Positions 1 through 31,928 of a DNA stretch of 64,000 nt are shown here, piece by piece (the first letter of the stretch is position 1; the number at the start of each line of letters is the position of its first letter). This stretch comes from Candidatus Marinacidobacterium sp. (GTDB taxonomy: Bacteria > Acidobacteriota > Vicinamibacteria > Marinacidobacterales > Marinacidobacteraceae): positions 293,532 through 357,531 of the forward strand of contig CBDCRI010000001.1 in assembly GCA_965220965.1 (NCBI GenBank), written 5' to 3'. The position numbers were made by a program, and so were the translations under genes. The notes under the pieces are model-generated. The model saw only the letters and a list, made by a program, of their open reading frames with translations, did not search any database and had not been told where the DNA came from.

Positions 1-2144
1 TCATGCGGGTGGCCGAGGTCGGCCAGCTGGCCCTTGTGGACCGCGCAGACCCAGGCCGCCCGGCGCAGGTCGCCAAGCGTCCAGGCGTCCTTGGCGGCGA
101 GCGCGCTGCCCGCCCCCACCGTGGCCCGGGAGAAGCCGGCGCCGTCCAGCCTCGAGACGCCGTCGCAGCGCGCCAGGAGGGCGCCGATGCGCGCCATGCC
201 CAGCGCCTGGGCGGCCGCCGGGGCCGGGAGCGGCGCCCGCTCCGGCGCCAGCGCCACCTTCACCGCCTCGGGGGCTGGCGCGTTCTCCCAGTCGATCGGC
301 GCGTCCATCGCCCGGTCGATGGCCTCCTGCTTGTCCACCAGCAGCCTGACGATGCGCTCGTCGAGCGAGCCCTGAAGCACGTAGTGGCGCACGTTGACCG
401 CGGCGTCCTGGCCGATGCGGTGGCAGCGGTCCTCGGCCTGGCTCAGGTCGGACGGGCGCCACGGCAGCTCGGCGAACACCACGTCGCTGGCCGCGGTCAG
501 GGTCAGCCCCACGCCGGCCGCCCCGATACTGCCGATGAAGGCGCGGCAGTCCGGGTCGCCCTGGAAGCGCTCCACCGCCGCCTGCCGGGCCTCGCGCCCG
601 TCGCGGCCGGTCAGCCTGGCGATGCCGTCGACGCCGTTGGCGCGCAGCGCCGCCTCGATGCGGTCAATGGCCACGTGGTGGTGGGCGAAGACCACCAGCT
701 TGGGCACGGACTCCAGCAGCCGCGCCGCCTCCTCGCCGACCAGGCGGGCCTTGCGCGCCCCGATGGCCTGCATGACGCGGGAGATCTTGCGGAAGGCGAC
801 GCCGCCGAGGCCCCCGCCGCCGTCGAGGGCCTCGGACAGGATGGCAAGGGAGCCCTCCCCGATCTCGGCGATGTCGGACTCAAGGGGCGCCAGCACGTCC
901 CCGTCGGCGCGCAGCGGGATGACCTGCCGGCGCTTGGCGGGCAGCTCCCTGAGCACGTCGGCCTTCAGCCGGCGGACCATGCACGTCGAGCGCAGGCGCT
1001 GCTGCAGCTCCTCCATGTTGCTGGCTCCCTGCGCGTTCCAGCCGTGCTCCGTCCGGTGCCCGGCGCAGTAGGCGCTGGTGAAGCCCGGGTAGCTGTCCCA
1101 GGTCCGCGGGTCGATGCGCTGCAGCAGCGGCCACAGCTCGACCGGGCGGTTGAGGATCGGCGTGCCGGTCATGAACAGGTCGCGCCGCGAGCGCAGGGCG
1201 AGCGCCGCCTTGGTGCGCTGCGCCCGAGGGTTCTTCAGGTAGTGGGCCTCGTCGAAGACGATCAGGTCCCACTCCTCCGCCGCAAGGCGCCCCTTCAGCC
1301 GCGTCAGCATGGAGTAGGTGGCGATCGCCGTCACCGGCCCGTCGGGGATGGGCGCCTTGGGCTCCACCAGGCAGGCCGGGGCGCCGTCCGCGCGCCACTT
1401 GCGCGCCTCCAGCCGCCAGTTCAGGGCCAGCGAGGCCGGCGCCACAACCAGGGCGCGGCTGACGTCGTCGGCGTTGTTGATCAGGCCGAGCGCCTGGATG
1501 GTCTTGCCGAGCCCCATCTCGTCGGCGAGCAGCACGCGCTCGCGCGCCATGCAGTAGCGGATGCCGGCGGCCTGGAAGGGCAGGTAGGCGAGGCCCTCGG
1601 GGGCCAGCAGCCCCTCGGCGTCGGCGGCCGTGGCCCGGCTGCGCTCGGACGCCTCCAGGTCCATGTGGGGGGTCCTCCACCAAGCGACCTCCTCGCGCCC
1701 TTGGTAGGCGCCCAGGGAGATGCCGGCCTTGCGCAGGGCGCGCCGCGTCTGCGGCGCCGACCACAGCGCCCGGAACGCATCGTCGGGGGCCGCCTTGCGC
1801 AGCTCGCGGGCGCCGCGCTTGGTGTGGACCGTGCGCGGCTCGCTCCAGTCGAGCAGCCCGTCCAGGCGCATCTCGTCCGGCTTGGCGATGCGCAACCCGT
1901 CGGGCAGCGGCTCGTCGGGGTCGGTCCACCAGCAGACCTCGTCGCGCTCTCCGGAGAGGCTGAAGCCGGCGGCCTTGAAGCGCTTGCGGCTCTGCAGCGC
2001 GCGCTCGAGGAAGGGTCCGTCGGGCGTGGCGGTGAGCAGGCGCCGGACGCCCTTGCGCGTGTGCACCTCCCGGGGCGCATCCCACTCCAGCATCCGCGCG
2101 AGCTCCCCCCGAAAGTCCTCCTCCCCCGCCATCGGCTCGTCCAT
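1..2144 (-). CDS. SNF2/Rad54-family helicase, C-terminus truncated at the window edge. The N-terminus carries two copies of a ~45-aa motif ([DE]W..PR.VHT[KR][KR]G.R.L).
   Basis: My own minus-strand translation from the ATG at 2144: GLGKTIQALG (motif I), VFDEAHYLKNP (DEAH box), FMTGTPILNRPVELW (motif III), VVFAHH..IGSIGAAGVGLTLTAASDVVFAELPWRPSDLSQAEDRCHRIGQ (motifs IV-VI). The frame is open to position 1. It is absent from the ORF track because no stop codon lies inside the window. Confidence 0.85.
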   Translation of the reverse strand, partial: MDEPMAGEEDFRGELARMLEWDAPREVHTRKGVRRLLTATPDGPFLERALQSRKRFKAAGFSLSGERDEVCWWTDPDEPLPDGLRIAKPDEMRLDGLLDWSEPRTVHTKRGARELRKAAPDDAFRALWSAPQTRRALRKAGISLGAYQGREEVAWWRTPHMDLEASERSRATAADAEGLLAPEGLAYLPFQAAGIRYCMARERVLLADEMGLGKTIQALGLINNADDVSRALVVAPASLALNWRLEARKWRADGAPACLVEPKAPIPDGPVTAIATYSMLTRLKGRLAAEEWDLIVFDEAHYLKNPRAQRTKAALALRSRRDLFMTGTPILNRPVELWPLLQRIDPRTWDSYPGFTSAYCAGHRTEHGWNAQGASNMEELQQRLRSTCMVRRLKADVLRELPAKRRQVIPLRADGDVLAPLESDIAEIGEGSLAILSEALDGGGGLGGVAFRKISRVMQAIGARKARLVGEEAARLLESVPKLVVFAHHHVAIDRIEAALRANGVDGIARLTGRDGREARQAAVERFQGDPDCRAFIGSIGAAGVGLTLTAASDVVFAELPWRPSDLSQAEDRCHRIGQDAAVNVRHYVLQGSLDERIVRLLVDKQEAIDRAMDAPIDWENAPAPEAVKVALAPERAPLPAPAAAQALGMARIGALLARCDGVSRLDGAGFSRATVGAGSALAAKDAWTLGDLRRAAWVCAVHKGQLADLGHPH

Positions 2145-2220
2145 GCCGCGCCTCCTCGCCAGCCTGGCCGCGTCCTTGGATTGTAGGATTCCGCCGCCGG
2201 CCGGCCCCGGCGCTTGGGGG

Positions 2221-3343
2221 TCAGGCGCCCAGAAGCAGTGGGGCGAGGTGGCCGACGGCGCCCAGAGCGGCGGCGACGGCCAGCAGGCCGCTGAGCGCGC
2301 GCCGCGCGAGGTCCCCGGCTCCGGCTGCCCGGGGCTGCGGGGGCAGGCCCGCCGCGGTCGCCCGGAAGGCCGGCGACAGCGCCTGCAGCTTGCACTCCGC
2401 CAGCGCCATGGCGCGCAGCCCCTCCGCCATGGCGCGGGCGCGGGCCGAGCGGGCCCGGCCGGAGGCGGCGACCAAGGCCCCGCCCAGGGCGGCCAGGGCC
2501 GCGTGCCCGGAGAGGCCCAGCCAGGACCGCACCGGATCGAAGGCGGCCGGGGCCGCGGCCCACAGGGCGAACTGGCCGGCGATGACGGCAAGCGCGCACA
2601 GGGCGCTCAGGGCGGACGTCCCCATGGCGGCCGCCTGCTCGCGGGCGCACGCGCCGCGGGCGGCCTCCGCGGCGGCGAGCAGGCCCTCCGAGCGGCTCCC
2701 GGCCTGGCCGCGCGCCGACTGGCGCAGCAGCGCCGCCTCGGCGGTGACGTGCCACACGTCGGTCTGCGACGGCGGCTGGCCGACGCCGGCCCCATGGGAG
2801 AGCACCGGCAGGAAGCCCAGCCGCTCGTGGAAGCGCGCCGACCTCAGGTTGGGCGGCTGGCTGACGACGGCCGCGAACACGTCGGCCGGCGGCGCGCCGC
2901 CCGGGCCCCGCTGCGCGGACCGGACGGAAAGCTCCCGGAAGAAGGCGTCGTACAGCGCCCTGCCGATGCCCCGTCCGGCCATGCCCCCGGCGACGCCGAC
3001 CTGCTTGACGACGTGGAAGGGCGGCGCGCCGCCGAACAGGGCCAGCAGGCGCCGCTCCGTGCTCTCGGGAGCGAAGCCGCCGGCGCGCTCGATGTGGTCG
3101 GACCGGTAGGCCAGGAGGAAGCCGACCGGCGGGCCGCCGTCGGCGTCAGTGCAGACCAGGAGGTCCACCCCCCCCCCCCGAAGGCGGGCCGCTGCGCTCC
3201 TGGAAGGCCCGGTAGCGCTCGACGCTGAAGTCGGAGACCAGGAAGCCGGTCTCGCCGTCGGACGTGTCGCGGTGGGCGCGCGACAGGTCGAAGACGGCCC
3301 CCACGTCATCCGCGGCGGCATGGCGGACGGTCCATCCGGTCAT
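2221..3343 (-). pseudogene. GNAT-family N-acetyltransferase interrupted by a frameshift inside a 12-nt homopolymeric C (coding-strand G) tract. It has a hydrophobic C-terminal extension.
   Basis: ORF 3343-3146 encodes MTGWTVRHAAADDVGAVFDLS...ERSGPPSGGGGG. ORF 3321-2221 continues ...GGGVDLLVCTDADGGPPVGFLLAYRSD...VKQVGVAGGMAGRGIGRALYDAFF (GNAT motif A). The two frames join with a +/-1 change at the poly-C run 3168-3179. Confidence 0.6.
3168..3179. repeat. Homopolymeric C12/G12 tract inside the GNAT coding sequence.
   Basis: Read directly from the sequence: aggtccacccccccccccccgaagg. Confidence 0.9.
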
Positions 3344-3695: not shown

Positions 3696-6600
3696 ATGCG
3701 CTGCATTGCCATTGACCTCGAGGTCAAGTCAGACCGCATCGCCGAGCTCGCCGGGGTCGATGCGCGGTCCGGCGAGGCGTTGAAGCTTTCCTGCGAAGGC
3801 CGGACGGGCCGCAACCTGCGCGACGCCCTGGCGCAGCTCGACGAGTTCGCCCGGCCCGGCGACTGCCTCGTGGGCCACAACCTGATCGACTTCGACCTGC
3901 CGCACCTGGCCGCCGCCGCACCCGAGCTGGACCTGCTGCGCATGCCCGTTGTGGACACCTTGCGCCTCAACCCCTTGGCCTTCCCGGCCAATCCCTACCA
4001 CAAGCTCGTCAAGCTCTACCAGGACGGCCGCTGGGTTCGGGGACAGACCAACGACCCGGAACAGGACTCCCGGCTTGCCCTGAAGCTCCTTGAGTCGCAG
4101 CGCGGCGCCCTGCAGGGCGCCGAGCCGGACCTGCTCGCCGCTTGGCATTGGCTGACCGGCGGATCGGCATCCGGCCTCGGATTCGACGCCTTCTTCGCGC
4201 AGTTGCGAGGCAGCCCCCGCCCGCCAGCCGACGAGGCCCGCGCCGCCATGGACCGGCGCCTTTCGGGCAGGGTCTGCCGCGCGCAGGGGCGCTCGCTCCC
4301 CGTCGGCGGGGAGGACGGCTGGCCGCTGGCCTACGCGCTGGCCTGGCTCTCCGTGGCCGAAGGCAACTCGGTCCTGCCAGGCTGGGTGCGCCACCGGTTC
4401 CCCGCCGCCGGACGGCTGATTCGGCGGCTGCGCGACCGTCCCTGCGCGGATGCGCGCTGCGCGTGGTGCCGCGAACGCCACGACGCCGCCAAGGAGCTGA
4501 AGCGCTGGTTCGGCTTCGACGGCTACCGCACGGCGCCGGCCACGCCCGACGGCGCTTCCATGCAGCGCGCGGTCGTCGAACGGGCGATGGCCGGCGGGCC
4601 GGTGCTGGCCATCCTGCCCACCGGCGCCGGCAAGTCGATCTGCTACCAAGTCCCGGCGCTGTCGCGCCACGCCAAGACCGGCGCGCTCACCGTGGTGATC
4701 TCGCCCCTGGTGGCCCTCATGGCCGACCAGGTGGCGGGGCTTGAGGCGCGGGGCATCAGCAGCTGCGTCACCGTCAACGGCATGCTGACGCCGCCGGAAC
4801 GGGCCGACGCCCTGGACCGAGTGCGCCTGGGCGACGCCGCGATCCTGCTGACCTCGCCGGAGCAGCTGCGCAACGAGTCGCTGCGCAAGGCGCTTGGGCA
4901 GCGCGAGATTGGCGCCTGGGTGCTCGACGAGGCGCACTGCCTGTCCGCCTGGGGCCACGACTTTCGCCCCGACTACCGTTTCGTGGGCCGCTTCATTGGC
5001 GAGCGCCGCAGCGCCCAAGGCGCGGCGGATCCGCCCCCGCCGGTGACCTGCCTCACCGCCACGGCCCGGCCGGAGGTCGTGGCCGGCATTCAGGAGCACT
5101 TCCGCGAAACGCTGGGCATGGAGTTCACCGTGTTCAACGGCGGCTCCGAGCGCGACAACCTCGAGTTCGAGGTGCGCCGGACGGACTCGGCCCACAAGCT
5201 CGACGACATCCACGAAGCGTTGACGGCGGAGCTGCCGGTCGGGCAACCCGGCGGAGCGATCGTCTACTGCGCCACCCGCCGCCGGTGCGAGGACGTGGCC
5301 GAGCACCTGCGGCGCAAGGGCGCGGATTGCGAGCACTTTCATGCCGGCCTCGCGCCGGAAGCCAAGAAGCGCATCCAGCAGCGGTTCATCGACGGCGAGG
5401 TGCGCGTGATTGCCGCCACCAACGCCTTCGGCATGGGCATCGACAAGCCCGACGTGCGCCTGGTGGTGCACGCCGACATCCCCGGGTCGCTGGAGAACTA
5501 CCTGCAGGAGGCGGGCCGGGCGGGCCGCGACCGGAAGCGCGCGCGCTGCGTGCTGCTCCACGCCGCCGACGACCTCGAGCGGCAGTTCGGGATGTCAGCC
5601 CGGTCCCGCCTCAGCCGCCGCGAAATCCAGGGCGTCCTCAAGGCGTTGCGTCGCGTCGGCGACCGGCAGCGAGACCCCGTGGTCGTGGCCACCCCCGGGG
5701 AGATTCTGGTGGACGATGAGGACGGGGCCTTCGAGCGCGACAGCGCCACGGACGACACCCGGGTGAGGACCGCGGTGTCCTGGCTGGAGGAGGCGGCGCT
5801 CCTGCGCCGGGAGGAGAACCGGGTGAAGGTGTTTCCGTCGTCGTTGCGGGTGCGCTCGGCGGACGAGGCGAAGCGCAGGCTCGATGCGAAGGCAGGCCTC
5901 ACCCAAAGCCGCCGCGATGCCCTGCTGCGCATCGTGCGGGCGCTGATTGCCGCGGACCCGGACGAGGGCGTCTCCACCGACGAGCTGATGGGCATTGCGC
6001 GGCTGGACTCCCCCGGCGTTCGCAACGGCCTGCATGACCTGGAGCACTTCGGCTTGGTCGCCAACGACATGGCCTTGACCGCGTACGTCCATGTGGCCAT
6101 GAAGGAGTCATCCCAACGACGGCTGAAGCGGGCCTGCGAACTGGAGGCGGCGCTGATCGCGCTGATGCGGGAGCAGTCCCCGGACCTCGCCAAGGGGGAG
6201 GCCCAGGACCTGCACCTGCGCGTCGCCGCGCAACGGCTGAGGAACGGCGGCCTCGCCCAAACGCCGCCCGATCGGCTGTCGCGCATCCTGCGCAGCCTCG
6301 AACGGGACGGGCGCGGCGATGAGCGGGCTGAGGAGGGGTCCGGGGGCAGCATCAAGCTGCACCGCCCGAACCGCGAACTGGCCCGAATCACGCTGCTTCG
6401 GTCATGGCGCGCCCTGGCCCGCACTGCGGAACGGCGCCGCGACGCGGCCGGCCTGCTGCTCGACCACTTGCTGGCCGCCCTGCCCAAGGGCGCCCGGGGC
6501 GCCGACCAGCTGGCGGAGACCACCCTTGGCAAGCTGCGGCAGGCGCTGGCCGAGGACATGGTGCTGAACGTCGAGGCCGGGAACTTGGGCAAGCTGCTCG

Positions 6601-8903
6601 ACCGAGCCCTGCTCTGGCTGCATGAGCAGGAGGTCATCCGGCTCAATCGGGGGCTCACGGTGTTCCAGCCCGCCATGACCGTCCGCCTTGAGGGCCGGCC
6701 CGGAACGGGCGCCCGCCGCCGGCAGTTCGGGCCCGCGGACTTCGAGCCTTTGGCGCTCCACTACCAGGAGCAGGTGCGGCAGACGCACATCATGGCGGAG
6801 TTCGCGGCCCGCGGCCTGCAGGCCCCCGCCGACGCGCTGCGCCTGGCGAGGGACTACTTCGGGCTGGAGCGCGGCGCCTTCCTCGACCGCTGGCTGCCCA
6901 ATCGCGGTTCAGGGATCAAGCGCGAGACCACCCCGGACAGCTGGACGGCAATCGTTGGCGGCTTGAGCCCGAATCAGCGAGAGATCGTTGCCGACCCCCG
7001 GGAGCGCGCCGACGTGCTGGTGCTGGCGGGCCCGGGCGCCGGCAAGACCCGCGTGCTGGCGCATCGGATCGCCTACCTGCTGCGGGTTCGGCGCGAACGG
7101 CCCCAAGGCATCCTCGCCCTCGCCTACAACCGGCACGCCGCCGTTGAGATTCGGCGACGGATTGAGGGGCTGGTTGGGTCGGACGCCAAGGGCGTCACGG
7201 TGATGACCTGCCACGCCATGGCCATGCGCCTTGCGGGCGCCAGCTTTGCGGCCATGCAGCGCACCGACGCCGGGGATGCGCGGAACGCGTTCAGGAAGGT
7301 GCTGCGCGAGGCCACCGCGCTGCTGCAGGGCGAGGGGCTGCCGCCGGACGAGGCCGACGCCCAGCGCGACCGCCTGCTGGCCGGGTTCCGACACATCCTG
7401 GTGGACGAGTACCAGGACCTCGACGGGGACCAGTATGAGTTGATCGCCGCCATGGCAGGACGGACCCGCAACGACCCGGACAGCAAGCTTGCGCTGTTCG
7501 CCGTCGGCGACGACGACCAGAACGTGTACGGCTTCATGGGCGCCTCGGTGAAGTTCATCCAGCGCTTCAAAGAGGACTACGACGCCGAGCCCGTCTACCT
7601 GACCGAGAACTACCGCTCAACCGCCCACATCATCGACGCGGCCAACGCCTTGATCGCGCCCGCCGAGCACCGGATGAAGCGGGAGCGCCCCATCGAGGTG
7701 GACCGCAAGCGGCGCAAGGCGGTGCCGGGCGGCACGTGGGCATCCTGGGACCCGGTCGGCCAAGGCCGGGTGCAGATCATCCCGGCGGGGGGCGACGACC
7801 GGACCCAAGCCCAAGCGGCCATTGCCGAGCTGACGCGCCTGCAGGGCCTGGCGGCCCCACGGAACGCCTGGGACTGGCGCAACTGCGCGGTGATAGCCCG
7901 ACGATGGCAAACCCTGGAGCCGGTGCGGAGCCTGTGCGAACTCAAAGGCATCCCCGCACAGATGGCCTCCGAGGAGACGGGCTACTTCTGGCGGCTTCGG
8001 GAAACCCGCGCGCTGCGCGATTGGCTGGCGGAGCGCGCCGGCGGCTTGGTGACGGCCGGCATGCTGGAGGACTGGGCGGACGCCCAGCACGCCAGCGGCT
8101 GGATGGATGCGCTGCTTGAGGCCGTGGCGGCGTTTCGAGCCGAACACGGCGCTGCGGAATGCGCCTTGGAGGCCTTTCTGGAATGGCTGGCCGAGTGGGG
8201 TCGGGACTTCCGGCGCGCCCAACGGGGCTTGCTGCTGGTCACGGCGCACAGCGCCAAGGGGCTGGAATTCGACCACGTCGTCATTCTCGACGACCAATGG
8301 CGCGTGAGCGAGCGCGATGAGGACCCCGACGCCTGGCGGCGCCTGCACTACGTGGCCATGACCCGAGCCAAGCAAACGCTGGCGTTGGCAAGCCTCGACC
8401 GGGAGGGCCGCGCGCGCCGCCACGGCAATCCGCAGCCGCGCCAGCCGCGTGCCACGCCGGCAGTCCCTTTGGAACTGCGCGACCGGGCTTGCGCACTGCT
8501 TCGCCCGGCGGCGGAACTCCCGCCGCCACCGCCCGAGCTGGGCCGCATCCGCGAGGCGCTGACCCTGGCGGACGTGAACCTGGGCTTTCCCGGCCGGCAC
8601 GTCCCCAGCCACGCAATCCACGGCGCCATTCGCCGGCTGCGGCAGCATGACCCGCTAGACGTCCTCACCGACCGCAGCCCTTGGGAACTGGCCACCAAGG
8701 CGGGACAGGTCATCGGCCGGCTGGCCAAGCAGTACGAGCCAAAGGGGCAAGTTCAATCGGCCCGGGTCCACGCGGTGGTCGGCTGGGGGCGAGACGACAG
8801 CGCGCCCGAATTCCAGGAGGGCCTGCCATGCGACGAGTGGGAGGTGGTGGTCCCCGAGCTGGTGTTCGATTCGACAACTGGCGATGGGGCGCAAGGGCGC
8901 TAG
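3696..8903 (+). CDS. Giant fusion protein: N-terminal DEDD(h) 3'-5' exonuclease, central RecQ-family SF2 helicase, C-terminal UvrD/Rep-like SF1 helicase.
   Basis: Exonuclease motifs IAIDLEV...LVGHNLIDFDLPHL. RecQ motifs ILPTGAGKSICYQ, VLDEAHCLSAWGHDFRPDY, VTCLTATA, VIAATNAFGMGIDKPDVRLVVH, QEAGRAGRD. UvrD motifs VLAGPGAGKTRVLAHRIAYLL, ILVDEYQDLD, TENYRSTAHIIDAAN, LLLVTAHSAKGLEFDHVVIL, VAMTRAKQTL. Confidence 0.85.
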   Translation: MRCIAIDLEVKSDRIAELAGVDARSGEALKLSCEGRTGRNLRDALAQLDEFARPGDCLVGHNLIDFDLPHLAAAAPELDLLRMPVVDTLRLNPLAFPANPYHKLVKLYQDGRWVRGQTNDPEQDSRLALKLLESQRGALQGAEPDLLAAWHWLTGGSASGLGFDAFFAQLRGSPRPPADEARAAMDRRLSGRVCRAQGRSLPVGGEDGWPLAYALAWLSVAEGNSVLPGWVRHRFPAAGRLIRRLRDRPCADARCAWCRERHDAAKELKRWFGFDGYRTAPATPDGASMQRAVVERAMAGGPVLAILPTGAGKSICYQVPALSRHAKTGALTVVISPLVALMADQVAGLEARGISSCVTVNGMLTPPERADALDRVRLGDAAILLTSPEQLRNESLRKALGQREIGAWVLDEAHCLSAWGHDFRPDYRFVGRFIGERRSAQGAADPPPPVTCLTATARPEVVAGIQEHFRETLGMEFTVFNGGSERDNLEFEVRRTDSAHKLDDIHEALTAELPVGQPGGAIVYCATRRRCEDVAEHLRRKGADCEHFHAGLAPEAKKRIQQRFIDGEVRVIAATNAFGMGIDKPDVRLVVHADIPGSLENYLQEAGRAGRDRKRARCVLLHAADDLERQFGMSARSRLSRREIQGVLKALRRVGDRQRDPVVVATPGEILVDDEDGAFERDSATDDTRVRTAVSWLEEAALLRREENRVKVFPSSLRVRSADEAKRRLDAKAGLTQSRRDALLRIVRALIAADPDEGVSTDELMGIARLDSPGVRNGLHDLEHFGLVANDMALTAYVHVAMKESSQRRLKRACELEAALIALMREQSPDLAKGEAQDLHLRVAAQRLRNGGLAQTPPDRLSRILRSLERDGRGDERAEEGSGGSIKLHRPNRELARITLLRSWRALARTAERRRDAAGLLLDHLLAALPKGARGADQLAETTLGKLRQALAEDMVLNVEAGNLGKLLDRALLWLHEQEVIRLNRGLTVFQPAMTVRLEGRPGTGARRRQFGPADFEPLALHYQEQVRQTHIMAEFAARGLQAPADALRLARDYFGLERGAFLDRWLPNRGSGIKRETTPDSWTAIVGGLSPNQREIVADPRERADVLVLAGPGAGKTRVLAHRIAYLLRVRRERPQGILALAYNRHAAVEIRRRIEGLVGSDAKGVTVMTCHAMAMRLAGASFAAMQRTDAGDARNAFRKVLREATALLQGEGLPPDEADAQRDRLLAGFRHILVDEYQDLDGDQYELIAAMAGRTRNDPDSKLALFAVGDDDQNVYGFMGASVKFIQRFKEDYDAEPVYLTENYRSTAHIIDAANALIAPAEHRMKRERPIEVDRKRRKAVPGGTWASWDPVGQGRVQIIPAGGDDRTQAQAAIAELTRLQGLAAPRNAWDWRNCAVIARRWQTLEPVRSLCELKGIPAQMASEETGYFWRLRETRALRDWLAERAGGLVTAGMLEDWADAQHASGWMDALLEAVAAFRAEHGAAECALEAFLEWLAEWGRDFRRAQRGLLLVTAHSAKGLEFDHVVILDDQWRVSERDEDPDAWRRLHYVAMTRAKQTLALASLDREGRARRHGNPQPRQPRATPAVPLELRDRACALLRPAAELPPPPPELGRIREALTLADVNLGFPGRHVPSHAIHGAIRRLRQHDPLDVLTDRSPWELATKAGQVIGRLAKQYEPKGQVQSARVHAVVGWGRDDSAPEFQEGLPCDEWEVVVPELVFDSTTGDGAQGR

Positions 8904-9138
8904 AGGCAGACCGGAAGCCGCGCCAACAAGCGCATCACCGCCCTTCGAGGAAAGGGCGCCCGGCGCCGAGTCCACCGGGCTCCCGATTCCGTCCGCTTGG
9001 CGACGCCGCCCTCGCCCAAGCGGAGCCTCCGAGCAGGACGGGGCGAGCAATGCGCCCACGAAGGGGAAGGCGCTGCAAGTTGCCCAAAACCGTGCTTTAG
9101 CGTTAAGCTTTTGGCTCGTTCGAACCGAGGCCTGCCTC

Positions 9139-9714
9139 ATGCGACTTCGCGATGCCGTTCGCGTCCTGGTCCTCGGCAAGGGGCGCCAAAGGCAGATATT
9201 GACCTCCAGCGACCTAGCCTGCCTCTTCCCTGAGGACTCTCCAGCGGCTCTCGCAAGGGGCGTTCGGTCGCTGGTTGACGTGGGGTTGCTGTCGCGGGTG
9301 ACGCACGGCGTTTACGTGAACTGCGCCGCTGCGCCGATGGGGTTGGAGGCCCCCGGCCGCCTTGTGGCGCACATCCGCCCCCACGACGTCAGCTACCTGT
9401 CCTACGAGTCCGCCTTGAGTTGGCATGGGGCGATCAATCCCATCCCGCACGTGGAGACGTTCGCCACCACGGGCCGTAGCGGTCGATTCAAAACCCTGGT
9501 CGCGCACTTGGAGCTGACGCACACCAGGCGCACGCCAAAGGAGATATTCGCCCGGACGCTCTTCAGGAAGGACTTGCGCTGCCGGGTTGCGTCGCCCGAC
9601 CTGGCCCTTGAGGACCAGCGCCGCGTCCGTCCCTACATGATCGGATGCCACGTCGAGGAGGTCTATCTGAGCGAAGCGCGCGCCGACTGGCGGGAGATGG
9701 GAGGCCCTCATTGA
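9139..9714 (+). CDS. AbiEi-like antitoxin/transcriptional regulator (type IV toxin-antitoxin).
   Basis: ~190 aa with LSRVTHGVYV and YLSYESALSWHG signatures. An AT-richer promoter region lies upstream. Its stop overlaps the ATG of the downstream AbiEii gene (ATGA at 9711-9716). Confidence 0.7.
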   Translation: MRLRDAVRVLVLGKGRQRQILTSSDLACLFPEDSPAALARGVRSLVDVGLLSRVTHGVYVNCAAAPMGLEAPGRLVAHIRPHDVSYLSYESALSWHGAINPIPHVETFATTGRSGRFKTLVAHLELTHTRRTPKEIFARTLFRKDLRCRVASPDLALEDQRRVRPYMIGCHVEEVYLSEARADWREMGGPH

Positions 9715-10673
9715 TGAACAGCTTCATCCACGACCAAGCGGCGGCGATTGTCCAGAACAAAAAGGACCTCGTTACGCACCTTCGGTCCGTGCGAAAGGAG
9801 ATCGTTCAGCTGCATGTCCTGCGCGCCCTCAACAGCAGCGGGATTCTCGATGAGATCACCTTCATGGGCGGCACCTGCCTGCGGCTTTGCCACGGCGGCA
9901 TCAGGTTCAGTGAGGACTTGGGCTTTCGCGGCGGCGGCTTTGACGGCCTCGCGAACGGCTTGGGGGCCACGCTTCAAGACGCCCTTCTGAAGCGCGGCAT
10001 CAATGCCGATGTCCGCCCTGCTGGGGCGCCCGGCAGGGCGAAGGGAGGCGTGGAGCGCTGGTGGGTGCGAGTCGTCGTCAGGAAGGATGCCCCCAAGGAC
10101 CAGCCCTCTGTCGAGCGAATCAAAATCGAGATTAACGCCCGAACGCGTCCGGAGGAGCGCGAACTCGGCCACTTGGCCGACCGTTTCGGCGAGCTGTCGG
10201 GAGACCTGTCGGAAGCCCCCCTGATCCATTGCATGCCCATGCTGGACATTTGCGCTGACAAGCTCGCGGCCTTTCCGTTGAGCGTCGTCCAGCGCCCAGA
10301 GAATCCGCGCTACAGGGATGTGTTTGACTTGGCTTGGGCGTTGCCCCGGCTTGACGATGGAGCCGTGCCGGACCGTGCGGCGGAGGTGGCCAGCCAACGA
10401 GGACTGGCGCCGGACGTGCGCGACGCCATCTCAAAAACGCTGCCAAAGCTGCGCGCGATTGTGGAGTCCGAAGAATACCGACGCAAGATTTCCCCCTTTT
10501 TGACTGACAGCGTGGCTGAAAGGACAGTGCGCGACGCGGAGTACAGGCGCAATTCGATCCAAGCATTGAGGCGGCAGCTGGATCTGTTGGACCGAGCGCT
10601 CGCGCTCCTTGGCCGTGGCCAGCGCGGCAGGCCGACCCAAGGCGGCGTTCGCCGCCGGCCCCCTTCCCCCTGA
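9714..10673 (+). CDS. AbiEii/AbiGii-family nucleotidyltransferase toxin (DUF1814).
   Basis: ITFMGGTCLRLCHGGIRFSEDLGF nucleotidyltransferase motif. Translationally coupled to the upstream AbiEi. Confidence 0.85.
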   Translation: MNSFIHDQAAAIVQNKKDLVTHLRSVRKEIVQLHVLRALNSSGILDEITFMGGTCLRLCHGGIRFSEDLGFRGGGFDGLANGLGATLQDALLKRGINADVRPAGAPGRAKGGVERWWVRVVVRKDAPKDQPSVERIKIEINARTRPEERELGHLADRFGELSGDLSEAPLIHCMPMLDICADKLAAFPLSVVQRPENPRYRDVFDLAWALPRLDDGAVPDRAAEVASQRGLAPDVRDAISKTLPKLRAIVESEEYRRKISPFLTDSVAERTVRDAEYRRNSIQALRRQLDLLDRALALLGRGQRGRPTQGGVRRRPPSP

Positions 10674-14296: not shown

Positions 14297-14704
14297 TCAC
14301 GGCCCCGGCGCGGGGGGCCTCGGCCCGGCCAACGGACTGGCGGACAGGCCGGGGCTCCCGATGAACCTGCGCAGGCCCTCCGAGTGGAACGCCCTGATCG
14401 CCTCCACGGTGGGCTGGAACCCGCCTAAGCGCAGGGTTTCCCGGATGCGCTTCCAATGCCCGTCCTTGCGGATGACGTCGAGGAACTCGGCGCCAGCCCA
14501 CGTCAGGCGCGGCATCCAAACCTCGGCGCTCGTGTATTTCCGCGGCATCGCCTCCCCGTGGATCGAGGTGATGAAGCCGGCGTCAAGCAGCAGCAAAAGC
14601 TGGGCCGACTCCGGCGAGTTGCTCTTCACTTCGAGGGGGCGGCCCGTCCCCGCCTCGACATCCAGAAGCAGCTTCCTGATCGCGTCCATGTCCCGCTTCA
14701 TGCG
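14297..14704 (-). CDS. DUF2513-like small protein.
   Basis: N-terminus MKRDMDAIRKLLLDVEAG resembles the DUF2513 family. A paralog lies immediately upstream. Confidence 0.5.
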   Translation of the reverse strand, partial: RMKRDMDAIRKLLLDVEAGTGRPLEVKSNSPESAQLLLLLDAGFITSIHGEAMPRKYTSAEVWMPRLTWAGAEFLDVIRKDGHWKRIRETLRLGGFQPTVEAIRAFHSEGLRRFIGSPGLSASPLAGPRPPAPGP

Positions 14705-14810
14705 TTTCCCTCCCTTTCGGCCGGCATCGCCGACGTTGCGCAACGCGTCCATTGTAGGGTCCGCAATGGGCGGCGGCTCTTAAAGGCCGCCCACCGCGCC
14801 TGGGCGGACG

Positions 14811-15323
14811 CTAGGGCGACGGCGAGCACTGCTTGGGCGCGGCGGCCCGCTTGACGCGCTCCGCGTGCACCCCCTCAATGGCGGCTTGCGTGACCGGAAC
14901 CTCCTTCGCGGCGAGCTGGCGCTTGATTATCCGCCACTGGCGGGGGTCGCGAATGATGTCGAGGAGCTCCGCGCCCGCCCACGTGAGGCGGACGCCATCC
15001 CAGACTTCGGTTATGGTGCTGTCCGCCTGCAAGGGGCCAATCCTCGGCTCGCCGGCCCGCAGCCGGATGAGGCCGGCGTCCCGCAGCTGCCAAAGGACGG
15101 CGGATCCGTCGGAGCCCCCTTCCGTCGAGACTGCGCCTGGCCCCTTCCCCCCTGCCGCCTCCACCTGCAGCAGCGCCACGCGCGCCTTGTCCATGGACCG
15201 CCTGCCGGGCGGCCCGAACATGCCCGTCGACCACCACCACTCGGACCATTCCGCCGGCTCGCGCCCGGCGGCCTTCCGCATGGCCTTCCACTCCAAGTAC
15301 TCGGGATCACGTTCGACTTCCAT
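14811..15323 (-). CDS. DUF2513-like paralog.
   Basis: Its C-terminal half (VWDGVRLTWAGAELLDIIRD...) parallels the neighbouring gene (VWMPRLTWAGAEFLDVIRKD...). Confidence 0.5.
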   Translation of the reverse strand: MEVERDPEYLEWKAMRKAAGREPAEWSEWWWSTGMFGPPGRRSMDKARVALLQVEAAGGKGPGAVSTEGGSDGSAVLWQLRDAGLIRLRAGEPRIGPLQADSTITEVWDGVRLTWAGAELLDIIRDPRQWRIIKRQLAAKEVPVTQAAIEGVHAERVKRAAAPKQCSPSP

Positions 15324-15430
15324 GCGCTGCGCTCCTGCGGCCGGATTGGGTTGGGTGCGGCCATGCGCCGCAACGCGCTGGATTATAGTGACGAGCCGCC
15401 CGGCGGGGCCGCAGGACGCCTCCGGCGGCC

Positions 15431-16603
15431 CTACCGCCCCGGCGCGGGCGGGGTCCCGGCCCGACGCCGGGCCGCAGCCTCGCGCACGGCGTCCCTCAGG
15501 TTCAACAGCCGCTCGGCGCTGGCCGGGTGCGTGGACGCGTGCTCGATGGCCACCGGGTCGAGCTGGGCGAATCGCCCCCACACGCGGGGCAGCGCGGCCA
15601 CGTCCATGCCGGCCTTGGCCATGAAGCGGCTGCCGAGGCGGTCGGCCTCCAGCTCGTAGCGCTGCGCGTACGCCAGCCGGCGCGACTCGTCGGCCTCCCA
15701 CGGGGCGCGAAGGCGCCGGGCCGCCCGCGCCAGCAGCGGCCTGGGGCCGACCGCGGCCGGCCTGCCGACCGCGGCGGGACCGCCGACCGGCACGGTCGGC
15801 CCGTGGCCGGCGACGTTGTGGGCCAGCTCGTGGGCGAGGATGGCCTGGTGCTCGACGTCGGCGTGCAGGAACTCCAGCATGCCCTCGGTGACGAGGATGG
15901 ACCGGCCGTCGGCGAATGCGTTGACTGCGTGGGAGGTCAGCAGCCGGACCGGGTAGTCGCAGGCGCGGACCTGCGCCATGCGGATCGGCAGCCCACGGCC
16001 GCCGCGCTCGACCGTCAAGGCCAGGCGGCCGTCCTCGCCGCCGGCCCGGACCATGCGCCCGACCCGCGCCTTGGCGCGGGCGTGGGCGCCGTGGGAGGCC
16101 GGCTCGGGCGCGGGCCGGCCCTCGACCTCGAGCAGGCGGTCGCCGACCCGCAGCCCGGCGCGCTCGGCCGGCGAGCCGGCGGCGACGTGGGCGACCACGA
16201 AGCCGGTCCCGTCCATGCCGAGCGCCTCGCGGTGCGCGACGCCCTCGAACAGCGGCATGCTGAAGGACCGCTCCCACATGGACTCCAGCGTGAACCCGCC
16301 GCTCGGGCGCACGCGCGGGCAGGCGTCGGCGTTGGCCGCCAGCAGCCGGAAGGCGTTGTCGCGCAGCCGCGAGAGCTTCGCCAGCCGGGAGGCCACCAGG
16401 GGCCTGGCCTCGGCCAGGCCGCCCTCCGAGCGCTGCAGGCGGTCGAGCGCCAGCCGGTGGGCCGCCCCCGGATCCGGCTGGCCGAGGGGCAGCGCGCAGC
16501 CCTGCAGGAGCATCCCCAGGCAGAGGGCGGCGCAGGCCGAAAGGCCGGTTGCCGAGGAGCGGCGGGCGGGCGTCGGTGCGGCGGTCCGGACGGGCTTGGG
16601 CAT
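15431..16603 (-). CDS. M48-family zinc metallopeptidase with a PDZ domain; predicted lipoprotein.
   Basis: HELAHNVAGH zinc-binding motif. PDZ-like GSPAERAGLRVGDRLLEVEG. N-terminal signal with lipobox LLQGC. Confidence 0.75.
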   Translation of the reverse strand: MPKPVRTAAPTPARRSSATGLSACAALCLGMLLQGCALPLGQPDPGAAHRLALDRLQRSEGGLAEARPLVASRLAKLSRLRDNAFRLLAANADACPRVRPSGGFTLESMWERSFSMPLFEGVAHREALGMDGTGFVVAHVAAGSPAERAGLRVGDRLLEVEGRPAPEPASHGAHARAKARVGRMVRAGGEDGRLALTVERGGRGLPIRMAQVRACDYPVRLLTSHAVNAFADGRSILVTEGMLEFLHADVEHQAILAHELAHNVAGHGPTVPVGGPAAVGRPAAVGPRPLLARAARRLRAPWEADESRRLAYAQRYELEADRLGSRFMAKAGMDVAALPRVWGRFAQLDPVAIEHASTHPASAERLLNLRDAVREAAARRRAGTPPAPGR

Positions 16604-16886
16604 GCAGGGGGTCGCTTGCAGTGGCGGGCGCCTCCGACGCGGCGGGACTTCGAGAGAGGGAAGAACCAGACCCATTGTGAATGGCCGCCGCGCCGGAGTG
16701 CCCGAGCGGAATTTTGCACAAGGCGGGCGGGCGGCGTCAACGGCCGCGTGTCCGGGGCGCCGCAATGGGACGCGCGGCCGCCGCCTCACCAGTTGTTGCG
16801 CCGTGTCGACCGCCGCGCAAGCGTGGCGCTTGGCCCGCCGACCCGACTGCTTGGATCAGGGCGCACGGCGACCGCAAGCTCCTGCC

Positions 16887-17561
16887 CTACGGCAGCTTGG
16901 CGGACCGGTTGCGATTCGGGTTGGGGGCCGGACCTGGCTCATGGGACAGACGGACCTTGGCCCTTACCATGTCGGCCCAGTGGTGCCCCGTGAAGTAGGT
17001 CTTTTGAAGCGCCCCTTCGACGGTTCTGAAAAGCAACGCCGGCATCTCTCCCTCGACGGAATTGTCATAGACATAGGCTCGATCGACAATCGGGATGGCT
17101 CTGGCAAGATTGGTGACGGATTTCCCGTACCTGCTGATTATCTTGCTGATTGGCACGTCGTGCCCGCCTTCCATCACGCGAGCGGCCACCCGCGTGGCGT
17201 TGATCGTCGGCGAATCGGTCCCAACGAAGAACAGCCGGACGAAGAAGCCATGTGAGATCGCCCGCCGAACGAAGGCGAGTTTCTCTTCCGTGGAAAACAC
17301 CGTCTCGAACGCCAGGGACTTGCCGCGTTCCAAGCACGCCTCGCGCCTCCGAGCGGCCTCACGCGCCGCTTCGAGGATTGCCTTTGGGTCATTCCAGTCT
17401 CCGAATGACTGCTGGGCGATCGCATCGGGGTTCACGTATTCGCAGCCTCCCAGCCAGTCGTGAGCCAAGGCGCGCTCAGTCAGGGTGGTTTTGCCGGCGC
17501 CGTTGGGGCCGGCGATCACGATCAGTTTTGGGCGAAGGGCGCTTGCCGATTCAGGAGCCAT
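16887..17561 (-). CDS. Zeta-toxin-like P-loop kinase/ATPase toxin.
   Basis: LIVIAGPNGAGKTTL Walker A motif; ~220 aa. A small gene immediately upstream overlaps it by 11 nt. Confidence 0.65.
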   Translation of the reverse strand: MAPESASALRPKLIVIAGPNGAGKTTLTERALAHDWLGGCEYVNPDAIAQQSFGDWNDPKAILEAAREAARRREACLERGKSLAFETVFSTEEKLAFVRRAISHGFFVRLFFVGTDSPTINATRVAARVMEGGHDVPISKIISRYGKSVTNLARAIPIVDRAYVYDNSVEGEMPALLFRTVEGALQKTYFTGHHWADMVRAKVRLSHEPGPAPNPNRNRSAKLP

Positions 17562-17853
17562 ATCCGAAGCTGGAGGAAGCGGGGGGACTCACGGATTGCG
17601 GGTCATCCAGCATTGCCTCATCGATCGAATCAGCAAGGCTTTGGAAATAGGCGGCTTGCGCCGCGTCGCCGCGCATGGCGACCACGCGCTGGAAGTCGAG
17701 CATGAGAGCTTCGAGCTCCGCATCCGAAGGCTCAGTTTGCGCATCAAGCAAGTTGACTTTTGGAACCATAAGACCCTGCTGGCTTACTCGGAACTGCAGC
17801 AATGGTAGCACGCTGCCCGCAAGATGGTCCGAACCGGATTTTTTTCGTGGCAT
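17551..17853 (-). CDS. Putative antitoxin partner of the zeta-like toxin.
   Basis: 100-aa acidic ORF (MPRKKSGSD...) overlapping the toxin start. Confidence 0.4.
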   Translation of the reverse strand: MPRKKSGSDHLAGSVLPLLQFRVSQQGLMVPKVNLLDAQTEPSDAELEALMLDFQRVVAMRGDAAQAAYFQSLADSIDEAMLDDPQSVSPPASSSFGYGS

Positions 17854-18065
17854 GCGGATGCCCTCCAAGGGACGGCCTCGCCCACCTCCCCGACACCGCC
17901 TGAAGCGCCTCTGCCCGATTGCGCCAGCCCTTGGCCGGCCGATTCGTTCCAGAGCGTCATAAGACCTGACGGCGCGGCTCAAGCTCTCTTAAGCCGGCAA
18001 GCTCGTGCAACATTCGGGCTAGGCAGCCGCGGGGGCCGCCCAAGGGGCTGCGCCGCGCCGGTCGG

Positions 18066-19049
18066 TCATCCGGGGGCGGGGCCGGCCGCCCTCCCCGCCT
18101 GCGAAGGCCCGTCCGTCGGCGCGGGCCGCCCCGCCCCGAGGCCATGCAGCGCGGCGGGGTCGTAGCGGTGCACGGCGGACAGGATGTCGTCGACCAGGCG
18201 CGCCTCCCTCCCGGTCGAGGGCAGCGCCTCGGCCAGCGAGCCGTAGTGCATCTCGAGCGCGTCCATCAGGAGTCCGCGCAGCGCCTCCAGGTCCGGGGAG
18301 CGCGGCAGCGCGGTCCTCGCCTTCAGGGCCTCCAGCTCGCGCTCCTTGTCGGCGAACCAGTCCTTGATCCGCTGCTTGGACCACTCGCCGCGGCGCACCG
18401 CCTTGTACAGCTCGCGGTCGCGGTCGAGCACCAGGTCGCCGCCGGCGAGGATCTGCTCGCACTCGCAGGCCAAGCGCACGATGTGGTAGGCGAACTTGGT
18501 GTCGAAACCGTGGGCGTCGATCGCCGCCTGGCGCTGCGGATTGGCCCGCTTGGGCCGGCCGTCGAGCTTCTTCAGCTGGGCGTAGGCGTAGCCGCGGAAC
18601 CGGGCGAAGGCGCCTTGGTGAAGGAACAAGCGGCGGTGGTCGCGCACGTGCTCGTAGAGCGCGGTGGAGTGGCGCACGCAGCGCCGCGGGCAGAACAGCG
18701 CGTCCACCATGTTGGGGTTGTTGTCGGCGCACAGGTCGAAGAAGCGCACGAGGGAGTAGATCGTGACATCGTACTGCCTGCGCGTCTGCGCAAACTCGAC
18801 GTGGTGCTGCTGGAACTGGTCGAAGGAGGGCGGCGCCGGACCGAATCCCGGTATGTGCCCGGCGAGGTGCGGGAAGACCTGATGCTTGGGCGGCATGGCG
18901 AACCCGACGATGTCCTCGTCCGAGTTGCCTGGCTCCGCGCAGCCGTAGGCGACCGAGCCGGTGGTCGCCTCGAACATGACGTTGTGCGGCAGCCAGGGCG
19001 GCGGCGTGATCAGCCCCTCCCGGGCCAGCTTTGCGGTGATTGAGGCCAT
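18066..19049 (-). CDS. Predicted nucleotidyltransferase (Pol-beta superfamily, RlaP/DUF4037-like).
   Basis: N-terminal GSVAYGCAEPGNSDEDIVGF (GS...D.D nucleotidyltransferase motif); ~330 aa. Confidence 0.45.
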   Translation of the reverse strand: MASITAKLAREGLITPPPWLPHNVMFEATTGSVAYGCAEPGNSDEDIVGFAMPPKHQVFPHLAGHIPGFGPAPPSFDQFQQHHVEFAQTRRQYDVTIYSLVRFFDLCADNNPNMVDALFCPRRCVRHSTALYEHVRDHRRLFLHQGAFARFRGYAYAQLKKLDGRPKRANPQRQAAIDAHGFDTKFAYHIVRLACECEQILAGGDLVLDRDRELYKAVRRGEWSKQRIKDWFADKERELEALKARTALPRSPDLEALRGLLMDALEMHYGSLAEALPSTGREARLVDDILSAVHRYDPAALHGLGAGRPAPTDGPSQAGRAAGPAPG

Positions 19050-22976: not shown

Positions 22977-23705
22977 ATGCGATTCAGATTGACAGCGCCA
23001 CGCGGTGAGAGTGCGCGGATTCGGTACTTGGACAGCCTCCACGCTGCACTGATCAACGCTTGGACCGCCAGTGGAGCGCAGCCCGAGCAATTGTTGGGGG
23101 GGCGTGCCGGCAACTGGTCCTTCGGGGCAGTGGGCGCCTCGAAATCCAGTGGCTTCGCGCTCAAGTCCGTAGTGATTGGGGCGGAAGACGGCGCCTTGGA
23201 GCCGTTCCTCCAAGACCTAGCTTGCGAAAACGTTCGAAAATCGTCTGTCAATGGCGACGTCATTGATCTTTCCGCTTGGGATCTGGCCCCGGAGGAGCTG
23301 CCGATTGAGTGTCCTCACGGCAGCTCGGCCGTCCTTCCGGCAATCATGCTCTCTCCGCTCGCCGTGTCCAAGCGCGGGGAAAAGAGGCGTTGGCATGACG
23401 ATCTGACGAAGATCGGATCGAACCTCGAGCAGGCGGTCAGCGCGCGTCTGTCGCGACTGACTGGTCGAAAGGTGGACCTTGAGGTTGAACCCGACCGACT
23501 CTACCTTCGAGCGAATCCGAAGCACTCGACGCTGGTTCCTACCCGCACCGCCAGGGGAGCAAGGCCGGCATTCGTGATCGGGACGCTTTGCCCGTTGCTC
23601 ATCCGCGGAAGCATTGAAGACCTCCGTTCAGCCTGGGCACTCGGAATCGGCGAGAAGAATCGCTACGGATTCGGGTGCATTGGCTACGCAGGACAACGCG
23701 CATGA
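22977..23705 (+). CDS. cas6: Cas6 crRNA endoribonuclease.
   Basis: 243 aa with the C-terminal glycine-rich loop GIGEKNRYGFGCIG. First gene of the cas operon. Its stop overlaps the next ATG (ATGA). Confidence 0.8.
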   Translation: MRFRLTAPRGESARIRYLDSLHAALINAWTASGAQPEQLLGGRAGNWSFGAVGASKSSGFALKSVVIGAEDGALEPFLQDLACENVRKSSVNGDVIDLSAWDLAPEELPIECPHGSSAVLPAIMLSPLAVSKRGEKRRWHDDLTKIGSNLEQAVSARLSRLTGRKVDLEVEPDRLYLRANPKHSTLVPTRTARGARPAFVIGTLCPLLIRGSIEDLRSAWALGIGEKNRYGFGCIGYAGQRA

Positions 23706-26695: not shown

Positions 26696-26714
26696 CCCGA
26701 GAGTTTCCAACCAC

Positions 26715-27725: not shown

Positions 27726-27728
27726 ACC

Positions 27729-28391: not shown

Positions 28392-28398
28392 ACGGACA

Positions 28399-30453: not shown

Positions 30454-30982
30454 ACTGGCGGAGGAGCGCGGCCTGCACGGCCTTTACTTCCAGCATGTGG
30501 CCTTGTGCCGACGACGTGCCTGGCTGCACCTGATGGGCGCGACGCACGCCGCCCATCACTCTCGCGTCCAAAGGGGCCTTGCGCTGCATCAGACCGAGAA
30601 GCGCCCCGGAGAGGCGCCACGGGGACTTGGCATTGCGCCTGACGCAATCGACTTCAAGCGCCGCGTTGTCATCGAAAGGAAGGGGGGCGCCGGAGCAAGC
30701 GACGCGGTTTCCAGGCAGGCGCTGTTCTACGCCGCATTCATGACGGGAGCCTCCGGAGAGCACTGGCAAGCGGAGGTTCACGTCTACGGATCCCGCGCGA
30801 AGAGGACCTACCATCTCACTGAGGATGCGCTGGACCGGCTCATCCGCGACGCGCAGGAGAGCCGTGGCTTGGCAGCCGGGCCGGCGCCACCGGCCCGTCG
30901 CATTCCGCTCTGCGAAGCCTGCAGCTGCAATCCCCTGTGCTGGGATGAGGAGCATGATGGACACAGTGATCGTACCGCGTGA
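30407..30982 (+). CDS. cas4: Cas4 RecB-like nuclease with a 4-Cys cluster.
   Basis: DAIDF...VVIERK (D-ExK motif). Cys at the N-terminus plus CEACSCNPLC at the C-terminus. Confidence 0.8.
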   Translation: MKRTMRILQKARCLRELAEERGLHGLYFQHVALCRRRAWLHLMGATHAAHHSRVQRGLALHQTEKRPGEAPRGLGIAPDAIDFKRRVVIERKGGAGASDAVSRQALFYAAFMTGASGEHWQAEVHVYGSRAKRTYHLTEDALDRLIRDAQESRGLAAGPAPPARRIPLCEACSCNPLCWDEEHDGHSDRTA

Positions 30983-31925: not shown

Positions 31926-31928
31926 TCG

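Follow-up and report, generated by a model that had tools for sequence, protein, structure and literature searches.

Machines that combine helicase and nuclease play a central part in both DNA repair and the immunity of bacteria. To our knowledge, those characterised so far work with one motor, or with two superfamily 1 (SF1) motors on separate subunits. Here, we describe a gene that joins an exonuclease domain, a superfamily 2 (SF2) helicase core of the RecQ type and an SF1 core of the UvrD type in a single chain. It lies in a 64,000-nucleotide stretch of Candidatus Marinacidobacterium sp. (Acidobacteriota; assembly GCA_965220965.1, contig CBDCRI010000001.1, positions 293,532 to 357,531 of the forward strand), hereafter called the window, to which all coordinates refer. 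The predicted protein consists of six parts, including three enzyme modules, which are listed below by nucleotide position, strand and amino acid (aa) range. Conservation is given over an alignment of 27 family members taken from genome contigs, with 38-77% identity.

3696..8903, plus strand: whole gene, a fusion in the order exonuclease, Cys4 module, RecQ, winged helices, UvrD, C-terminal domain; ATG start, 1735 codons plus stop
3696..4205, plus strand: DnaQ/epsilon-type DEDD 3'-5' exonuclease domain, aa 1-170; carboxylates D7, E9, D67 and D124 invariant
4206..4550, plus strand: helical module with four invariant cysteines (C194, C250, C255, C258), aa 171-285; H262 mostly conserved
4551..5600, plus strand: RecQ-type SF2 helicase core, aa 286-635; assigned from Pfam, TIGR00614 and motifs invariant in 27/27 members
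5601..6950, plus strand: non-catalytic middle region, aa 636-1085; tandem winged-helix array with helical linkers, confident core at aa ~720-980
6951..8396, plus strand: UvrD/Rep/PcrA-type SF1A helicase core, aa 1086-1567; assigned from Pfam, NCBIfam and motifs invariant in 27/27 members
8397..8900, plus strand: C-terminal domain, aa 1568-1735; the least conserved part, with 31% mean identity

This open reading frame (ORF) is taken as a real gene because its GC content at the first, second and third codon positions is 0.75, 0.49 and 0.90 (the sequence has ~73% GC overall), and because full-length homologues in more than 100 clusters of the protein database (1700-1796 aa, 58-76% identity, 99% coverage) share its start, with the family consensus MRC(I/L)S(L/I)DLE. 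A first-pass annotation, made from the sequence alone, had described the 1735-aa product as a fusion of DEDD exonuclease, RecQ helicase and UvrD-like helicase. That description was borne out, and the three active sites look intact. All the motifs it quoted are present in the translation: AIDLE (aa 5-9), GAGKS (310-314), GPGAGKT (1112-1118), DEYQD (1237-1241), TENYRST (1303-1309), VTAHSAKGLEF (1515-1525) and VAMTRAK (1553-1559). None of the models in Pfam, NCBIfam or PADLOC v2 spans the protein from end to end or covers its N-terminal, middle or C-terminal part, and NCBI names the members only as 'RecQ family ATP-dependent DNA helicase', 'AAA family ATPase' or 'UvrD-helicase domain-containing protein'. 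A full-text literature search that covered few subscription journals, so that an earlier account is possible, returned no description of the architecture; nor did the literature searched contain papers on RecQ-UvrD, UvrD-RecQ, exonuclease-RecQ or DnaQ-RecQ fusions.

The exonuclease likeness of the N-terminal 285 residues is marginal at the sequence level. The RNase_T model scores 19.6 bits against a cut-off of 24, a sequence search relates the region to Staphylococcus aureus DinG with E = 0.03, and a profile search against PDB sequences gives E values of ~0.1-0.3. Because the Pfam, NCBIfam, phmmer and PDB profile matches were marginal, structure prediction was needed to assign the domain, and the closest structural match of the predicted fold is again S. 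aureus DinG. The fold is RNase H-like, of the DnaQ type, and holds the four metal-binding carboxylates of motifs ExoI-III, which places the domain among the DEDD (DnaQ-like) exonucleases. It falls into neither the DEDDh nor the DEDDy class, as ExoIII carries neither the His (H-x4-D) nor the Tyr (Y-x3-D) general base. In the helical module that follows, the Cys4 cluster is a probable structural zinc site; the module takes the position of the helical bundle that comes after the exonuclease in S. aureus DinG.

The first motor is recognised by the Pfam domains DEAD (aa 289-458) and Helicase_C (511-612), and by the NCBIfam model TIGR00614 (recQ_fam) with 292.2 bits against a cut-off of 219.8. Its motifs include motif 0 (Q290), Walker A GAGKS (K313), DEAH (411-414), TAT (454-456) and QEAGRAGRD (604-612). 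Within the SF2 core lies the aromatic-rich loop of RecQ, CLSAWGHDFRPDY; the loop is present and conserved after motif II, as DEAHCLSAWGHDFRPDY, and this marks the motor as a member of the RecQ family. It is not a canonical bacterial RecQ, since its score is far under the equivalog cut-off (TIGR01389 / PRK11057), and neither Pfam nor NCBIfam detects a RecQ Zn-binding, RQC or HRDC domain after the core. What follows instead is the DNA-binding winged-helix array, which spans ~450 aa between the two motors, and in which winged helices are the sole folds recognised. This middle region contains an invariant HY..Q.H patch (H1022, Y1023, Q1029, H1031), and its profile gave nothing significant against PDB sequences.

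The second motor carries both domains of the UvrD/Rep/PcrA group of SF1A, with motifs Q, I, Ia and II-VI intact, and thus belongs to that group. Its motifs are Q1094, Walker A GPGAGKT (K1117), DEYQD, GDDDQNVY, TENYRST, HSAKGLEF and VAMTRAK. In Pfam it is matched by UvrD-helicase (PF00580, 138.7 bits from aa 1091), AAA_19, UvrD_C (aa 1509-1565) and UvrD_C_2, with PF13361 reaching 53.9 bits. The UvrD/PcrA models of NCBIfam match with E values of 1e-52 to 1e-55 and extend to residue ~1330, but stay far below their equivalog cut-offs (182 versus 1144, and similarly for the others), so the core is regarded as a family member and not as an orthologue of UvrD, PcrA, Rep or HelD. A 2B-like insert at aa ~1331-1505 is divergent, with 39% mean identity over the 27 members. 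The C-terminal domain retains a conserved WEVVVPELVF-like motif (W1715, E1716).

Across all 27 members, the exonuclease residues D7, E9, D67 and D124 are invariant, as are H61, Y101, H102 and K106 in the same domain and the four cysteines of the Cys4 module. The same holds for the RecQ motifs (Q290, K313, DEAH, aromatic loop, TAT and QxxGRxGRD) and for the UvrD motifs (Q1094, K1117, DEYQD, GDxxQxxY, NYRS, HxxKGxEF and VxxTRA). Since the catalytic motifs are invariant in members this divergent, all three enzymatic centres are under purifying selection.

Known proteins resemble this architecture in part. In the eukaryotic WRN protein, a 3'-5' exonuclease likewise stands N-terminal to a RecQ core with the aromatic-rich loop, in the same order and with the same logic, and coordinated unwinding and digestion have been shown experimentally for WRN. 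The arrangement had been called WRN-like in the first-pass annotation, which is right as to the order of the modules; homology to WRN, or membership of its type, was rejected, as the exonuclease is not of the RNase D type (DEDDy) and RQC and HRDC are missing. RecBCD, AddAB and AdnAB also combine two helicase-type motors with a nuclease to process DNA ends, and act both on phage DNA and in repair, but they are multi-subunit enzymes with SF1 motors only and PD-(D/E)XK nucleases, whereas here an SF2 and an SF1 motor share one chain with a DEDD exonuclease. Nhi and Hna are stand-alone proteins of defence islands that join helicase and nuclease, with one motor and with different helicase and nuclease folds. 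If a defence role is right, the fusion gene would fall in the functional class of Nhi and Hna; no Nhi- or Hna-specific PADLOC model was among the top matches listed for the protein.

The closest structural relative of the N-terminal part is better understood. In S. aureus DinG, exonuclease and helicase form a coordinated machine that digests duplex DNA with ATP and is required in crosslink repair (PMC12345164). The DinG of S. aureus and B. subtilis is a DEDDh exonuclease fused to an XPD-type SF2 helicase of 5'-3' polarity, whereas the fusion family has a RecQ-type motor and, in addition, the SF1 UvrD motor. DinG has the canonical DEDDh histidine where the family has Asn or Ser; the Cys4 cluster, the winged-helix array and the C-terminal domain have no counterpart in DinG; and DinG is a repair gene that Firmicutes pass on vertically, unlike the patchy and mobile fusion gene.

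Among defence proteins, the best PADLOC matches on aa 261-653 are DpdF (368 bits) and PsyrT (283 bits), which concern the RecQ part only. Like the fusion protein, DpdF and PsyrT/RqlH have a RecQ core lacking the canonical RecQ C-terminal domains and occur in defence islands; unlike it, these families have no exonuclease and no UvrD module, and the RqlH paper describes a RecQ-like clade with neither. Membership of the Dpd system was rejected, as NF041063 (DpdF) scores 213 bits against a cut-off of 550 and no dpd genes were recognised among the neighbours. PsyrTA was also rejected: the PsyrT model covers the core only, and neither PsyrA nor any conserved adjacent gene was found in 30 loci. On aa ~1080-1430, GajB models reach up to 171 bits, the shared feature being a UvrD-type SF1A core that is also found in ArmD (ARMADA II), DarH and helicases associated with DRT. 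GajB acts in complex with the OLD/TOPRIM nuclease GajA, and the similarity of the fusion protein to it is at the general UvrD/PcrA level. The analogy with GajB drawn earlier therefore holds for a generic UvrD core and for nothing beyond; Gabija membership was rejected, with no GajA-like gene adjacent in the window and no conserved neighbour in the 30 loci. ARMADA II is a multi-gene system of SNF2, methylase, DExH-DUF1998 and UvrD components and is not the fusion family, and the UvrD-containing systems reported in the domain-centric discovery papers are type II Gabija, DarHTG and others than this family.

The family is large. With the N-terminal 285 residues as query, 703 proteins at E <= 1e-10 were retrieved from 1.84 billion cluster representatives, that is, ~700 clusters at 50% identity bearing the N-terminal module. 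In these proteins the exonuclease/Cys4 region is always N-terminal, and their lengths are ~1670-1910 aa, save for obvious fragments. The fusion had been called unusual, which is true relative to characterised proteins, but it represents a large conserved family and not a singular event. Members are known from at least six phyla, and full-length copies (37-63% identity) occur in Alpha-, Gamma- and Deltaproteobacteria, Acidobacteriota, Acidimicrobiia, Dehalococcoidia and Verrucomicrobiia; the GC content of the host genomes is 43-71%. Identity is decoupled from taxonomy: copies from Acidobacteriota, Dehalococcoidia and Pseudomonadales share ~60% identity with the window protein, and several other proteobacterial ones share only ~40%. 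More distant RecQ-UvrD fusions, at ~30% identity, are found in Bacteroides, Nostoc, Calothrix and Deinococcus plasmids; a distant relative on Nostoc punctiforme pNPUN02 (L087) is annotated as three consecutive coding sequences.

Plasmids and chromids carry 17 near-full-length copies, in Thiothrix, Microvirga, Cereibacter, Rhizobium, Paracoccus, Croceicoccus, Sulfitobacter and Allochromatium, and the carrier plasmids are mostly non-mobilizable megaplasmids. IMG/VR contigs hold a further five copies, at the edges of Mu-like and other prophages or beside methylase/ResIII genes. One copy interrupts the core block hisS-yfgM-bamB-der/xseA-guaB-guaA between der and xseA; in E. coli K-12, this block is unbroken. 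The gene thus belongs to a conserved, widespread and mobile family that is apparently without name or characterisation in the libraries searched.

When neighbouring gene families were clustered over 30 loci, none was present in more than 3 of them. The commonest neighbour, an AAA_14 + DUF4143 ATPase gene, lies near members in L001, L024 and L025 (3/30 in the clustering) and also in L173. The closest relatives of the window gene, in L001 (76% identity) and L173 (81%), share a context with each other, with the DUF4143 ATPase upstream and a MaoC dehydratase downstream, which is unlike that of the window. In L173 (10001-15234), the gene was called as two ORFs of 1381 aa and 342 aa, the latter with UvrD_C; this split reflects a frameshift pseudogene or else an error of long-read assembly.

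By raw count, ~6 of 16 annotated contexts, window included, have bona fide defence systems near the gene, and ~12 of 16 have toxin-antitoxin (TA), transposase or integrase genes. The defence contexts comprise type I restriction-modification with HNH, type I-D CRISPR-Cas, ResIII with an N6/N4 methylase, AbiEii with PIN and insertion sequence elements, and a PLD nuclease; the member on Thiothrix plasmid pTfr153 (L084) is 4 kb from a type I-D locus. Among 124 proteins encoded within three genes on either side in 28 loci, we found PIN (4), ParE (2), transposases or integrases (5), HEPN-Toprim (2) and PLD (2), and the commonest Pfam families included PIN, DDE transposase, AAA_14/DUF4143, ParE, integrase, HEPN-Toprim and PLD. 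PADLOC matches in this set included HmaC, ZorA, REase I and IV, MADS and PDC-S01/S05, and ordinary metabolic families were also present. Accessory genes in variable regions typically show such a pattern, which, suggestively, fits a defence gene.

The window itself is rich in genes of this kind, as follows.

3..2606, minus strand: SNF2-family helicase, upstream and divergent; 868 aa visible, continuing past the window start; generic ZorD/DpdE/DrmD-like core
8884..9714, downstream: AbiEi, E 7e-36
9645..10673, downstream: AbiEii, E 4e-42
14297-19049, minus strand: small conflict-type gene cluster of DUF2513, M48 peptidase with PDZ, Zeta-toxin/AAA_33 kinase and RlaP-family nucleotidyltransferase
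23675-33834: complete-looking type I-D CRISPR-Cas locus with Cas10d (E 1e-223), Csc2/Cas7d, Cas3-like helicase, Cas4 and Cas1
34163-34984, minus strand: second AbiEii, past the CRISPR array, with a possible partner at 34942-35574
37022-40178: second CRISPR-like array, with a ~29-nt repeat GCCCCGCC-N-GCGCGGGGATGGACCC and 61-nt spacing
44464-45696: Fic/DOC protein with DUF4172
52931-53980: C5 cytosine DNA methylase

The defence-rich setting that had been noted at the outset was thus confirmed in the window, with AbiE twice, type I-D CRISPR-Cas, a Zeta-like toxin, Fic and the C5 methylase. No tRNA and no obvious housekeeping gene was found in the whole 64 kb, and the right half of the window has no near-identical plasmid match. 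The match of the SNF2 helicase to DpdE reflects generic core similarity; a second long ORF (2221-3321, minus strand, other frame, with a weak GNAT-like match) overlaps the 5' part of the SNF2 gene and blurs its start and the extent of the N-terminal domain. The longest ORF for AbiEi overlaps the 3' end of the fusion gene by 20 nt; because the AbiEi model aligns solely from residue 86, this overlap may be an artefact of calling the longest ORF, and the true start possibly lies later. The cluster at 14297-19049 may represent one or two further toxin-antitoxin or Abi-like modules.

In the type I-D region, where GC falls to 57-65%, below that of the flanks, a 99-aa ORF is a candidate Cas2, and the locus is followed by an array of 23 repeats with the core GTTCCCAATCCCCATGAGGGGTAATGAG and ~65-nt spacing. 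The second CRISPR-like array has an odd structure: it is split into four or five blocks of 5-10 repeats each, with inserts of ~460-630 bp between them. No cas genes were recognised adjoining it, and mechanical ORF calls at 40102-41649 overlap its end. Between 44464 and 53980 there is a run of ~300-aa ORFs with very high GC at the third codon position and no Pfam match, and no restriction partner was identified for the C5 methylase.

Because no neighbour family is conserved, we regard the fusion gene as a stand-alone unit, and AbiE and SNF2 as separate residents of the island. The first-pass annotation had placed the gene between SNF2 and AbiE; the positions are correct, and the two are not its functional partners. 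It had also argued against a housekeeping function, naming ubiquitous, single-copy and syntenic presence as the pattern that would speak for one. The survey gave a different picture, of patchy occurrence across phyla, plasmid and prophage-edge copies, and a context that varies even among the closest relatives; the gene is clearly neither ubiquitous nor syntenic in the manner of a housekeeping gene.

What, then, does the protein do? We read it as an autonomous, horizontally mobile helicase-nuclease; at roughly even chances, its role, as its context suggests, is that of a stand-alone effector against invading or replicating foreign DNA, such as phage or plasmid intermediates, and not one in core repair. 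A defence role is thought likeliest because of the mobility of the gene and the company it keeps. A more specific version, which we put forward tentatively, is a hitherto unrecognised single-gene immune effector in which the SF2 and SF1 motors and the DEDD exonuclease would dismantle the intermediates or free 3' ends of invading DNA, by unwinding with both motors and 3'-5' degradation. Here, the winged-helix array and the variable C-terminal domain would recognise replication or recombination intermediates, or free 3' ends.

RecQ and UvrD/PcrA family helicases translocate 3'-to-5' on single-stranded DNA, and DnaQ-type exonucleases remove nucleotides from 3' ends. The proposed mechanism, the most economical one, has three steps. 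Firstly, the winged-helix array and the motors would load on 3'-tailed, gapped or branched DNA, such as forks and D-loops; secondly, the RecQ and UvrD modules would unwind the duplex, strip bound proteins with ATP, or both; and finally, the released 3'-ended strand would be fed to the N-terminal exonuclease and degraded, a coupling of the two activities for which S. aureus DinG and WRN are the experimental precedents. The motors might divide the work by running in tandem on one strand, by each taking one arm of a fork or D-loop, or by one driving translocation with the other serving to anchor the enzyme or to strip proteins.

Several points weigh against an anti-invader role. Both motors are of the same expected polarity, we know of no family member with an anti-phage phenotype, and the closest structural analogue, DinG, is a classical repair enzyme, as are those of both helicase families. 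The exonuclease is a further difficulty. The general-base histidine of DinG aligns with N119, a position held by 25 Asn and 2 Ser among the 27 members, and the candidate substitute, an invariant NPYH loop (Y101, H102), has a predicted confidence (pLDDT) below 50 in the model. Since N119 replaces the canonical base and the loop that might stand in for it is modelled with low confidence, exonuclease activity is plausible but not assured. The C-terminal domain, to which part of the recognition is ascribed, has no match in Pfam, NCBIfam or the PDB profile search. No full-length copy occurs in 50,697 curated phage genomes, where the matches are to the generic RecQ core only; the gene is therefore not typical phage cargo, which is in itself neutral for defence. 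As for the context, 2-3 of the 16 annotated contexts are purely metabolic or housekeeping, the defence-neighbour counts are raw ones, and TA and transposase genes are frequent on plasmids in any case.

The main rival, which we consider less likely, is an accessory nuclease-helicase for DNA repair or replication restart, dealing with crosslinks, stalled forks or replication-transcription conflicts, kept as an extra copy on chromids, megaplasmids and islands and without a role in immunity. The RecQ and UvrD families are repair helicases, and NCBI files the family under DNA recombination. Many copies are on large non-mobilizable plasmids or chromids, some loci lie amid housekeeping or metabolic genes, and one copy adjoins xseA (exonuclease VII). 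The closest structural match, S. aureus DinG, is a nuclease-helicase needed in crosslink repair (PMC12345164). However, the family is spread very patchily, identities between phyla are ~60% and out of step with taxonomy, the context differs even among relatives at 76-81% identity, and defence, TA and mobile-element genes often adjoin. The copy next to xseA is an insert in a block that E. coli has uninterrupted, and the accessory domains of RecQ (Zn-binding, RQC and HRDC) are missing.

It is improbable that the gene serves its carrier element and not the host, as a selfish or maintenance function in plasmid or prophage replication, recombination or anti-defence. Copies do occur on plasmids and at prophage edges, Mu-like prophages among them, often with integrases and transposases nearby, but there is no consistent association with replication, relaxase or packaging genes, curated phage genomes lack the gene, mobile-element genes are absent within 10 kb of many chromosomal copies, and the carrier plasmids are mainly non-mobilizable megaplasmids.

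Least probable is a multi-gene system with the SNF2 and/or AbiEi-AbiEii genes of the window (a helicase-guided Abi or an ARMADA/DISARM-like system): the 20-nt overlap with AbiEi suggests co-transcription, another member of the family has an AbiEii module 3 kb downstream, a homologue of the window SNF2 lies ~5 kb from a member in one other locus (L030 only), and SNF2 and UvrD are paired in ARMADA II, yet the context survey refutes such a partnership as a general rule (no neighbour family in more than 3/30 loci), neither SNF2 nor AbiE is present at the closest relatives (L001 and L173), AbiE is known to work autonomously as a pair of genes, the overlap may stem from longest-ORF calling (model from residue 86), and the ARMADA/DISARM hallmark genes (methylase and DUF1998 helicase) are not adjacent.

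The triple fusion is a variation on the helicase-nuclease theme, and is neither a unique fusion nor a demonstrated defence system. Its architecture is likely to surprise helicase specialists, while the functional claim comes from context. A single chain with RecQ SF2, UvrD SF1 and exonuclease modules raises the questions of what its substrate is and how the two motors, with their shared polarity, work together on it. If the family is a repair enzyme, it would be a functional counterpart of WRN in bacteria, extended by a UvrD module. If it is an anti-phage or anti-plasmid effector, it would be a new defence gene, acting alone and common in environmental Proteobacteria, Acidobacteriota and Actinobacteria. 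Should the single-gene immune effector prove true, it would bring a new architecture to defence that targets nucleic acids, and would be the first case of a natural enzyme whose SF1 and SF2 DNA helicases work together in cis.

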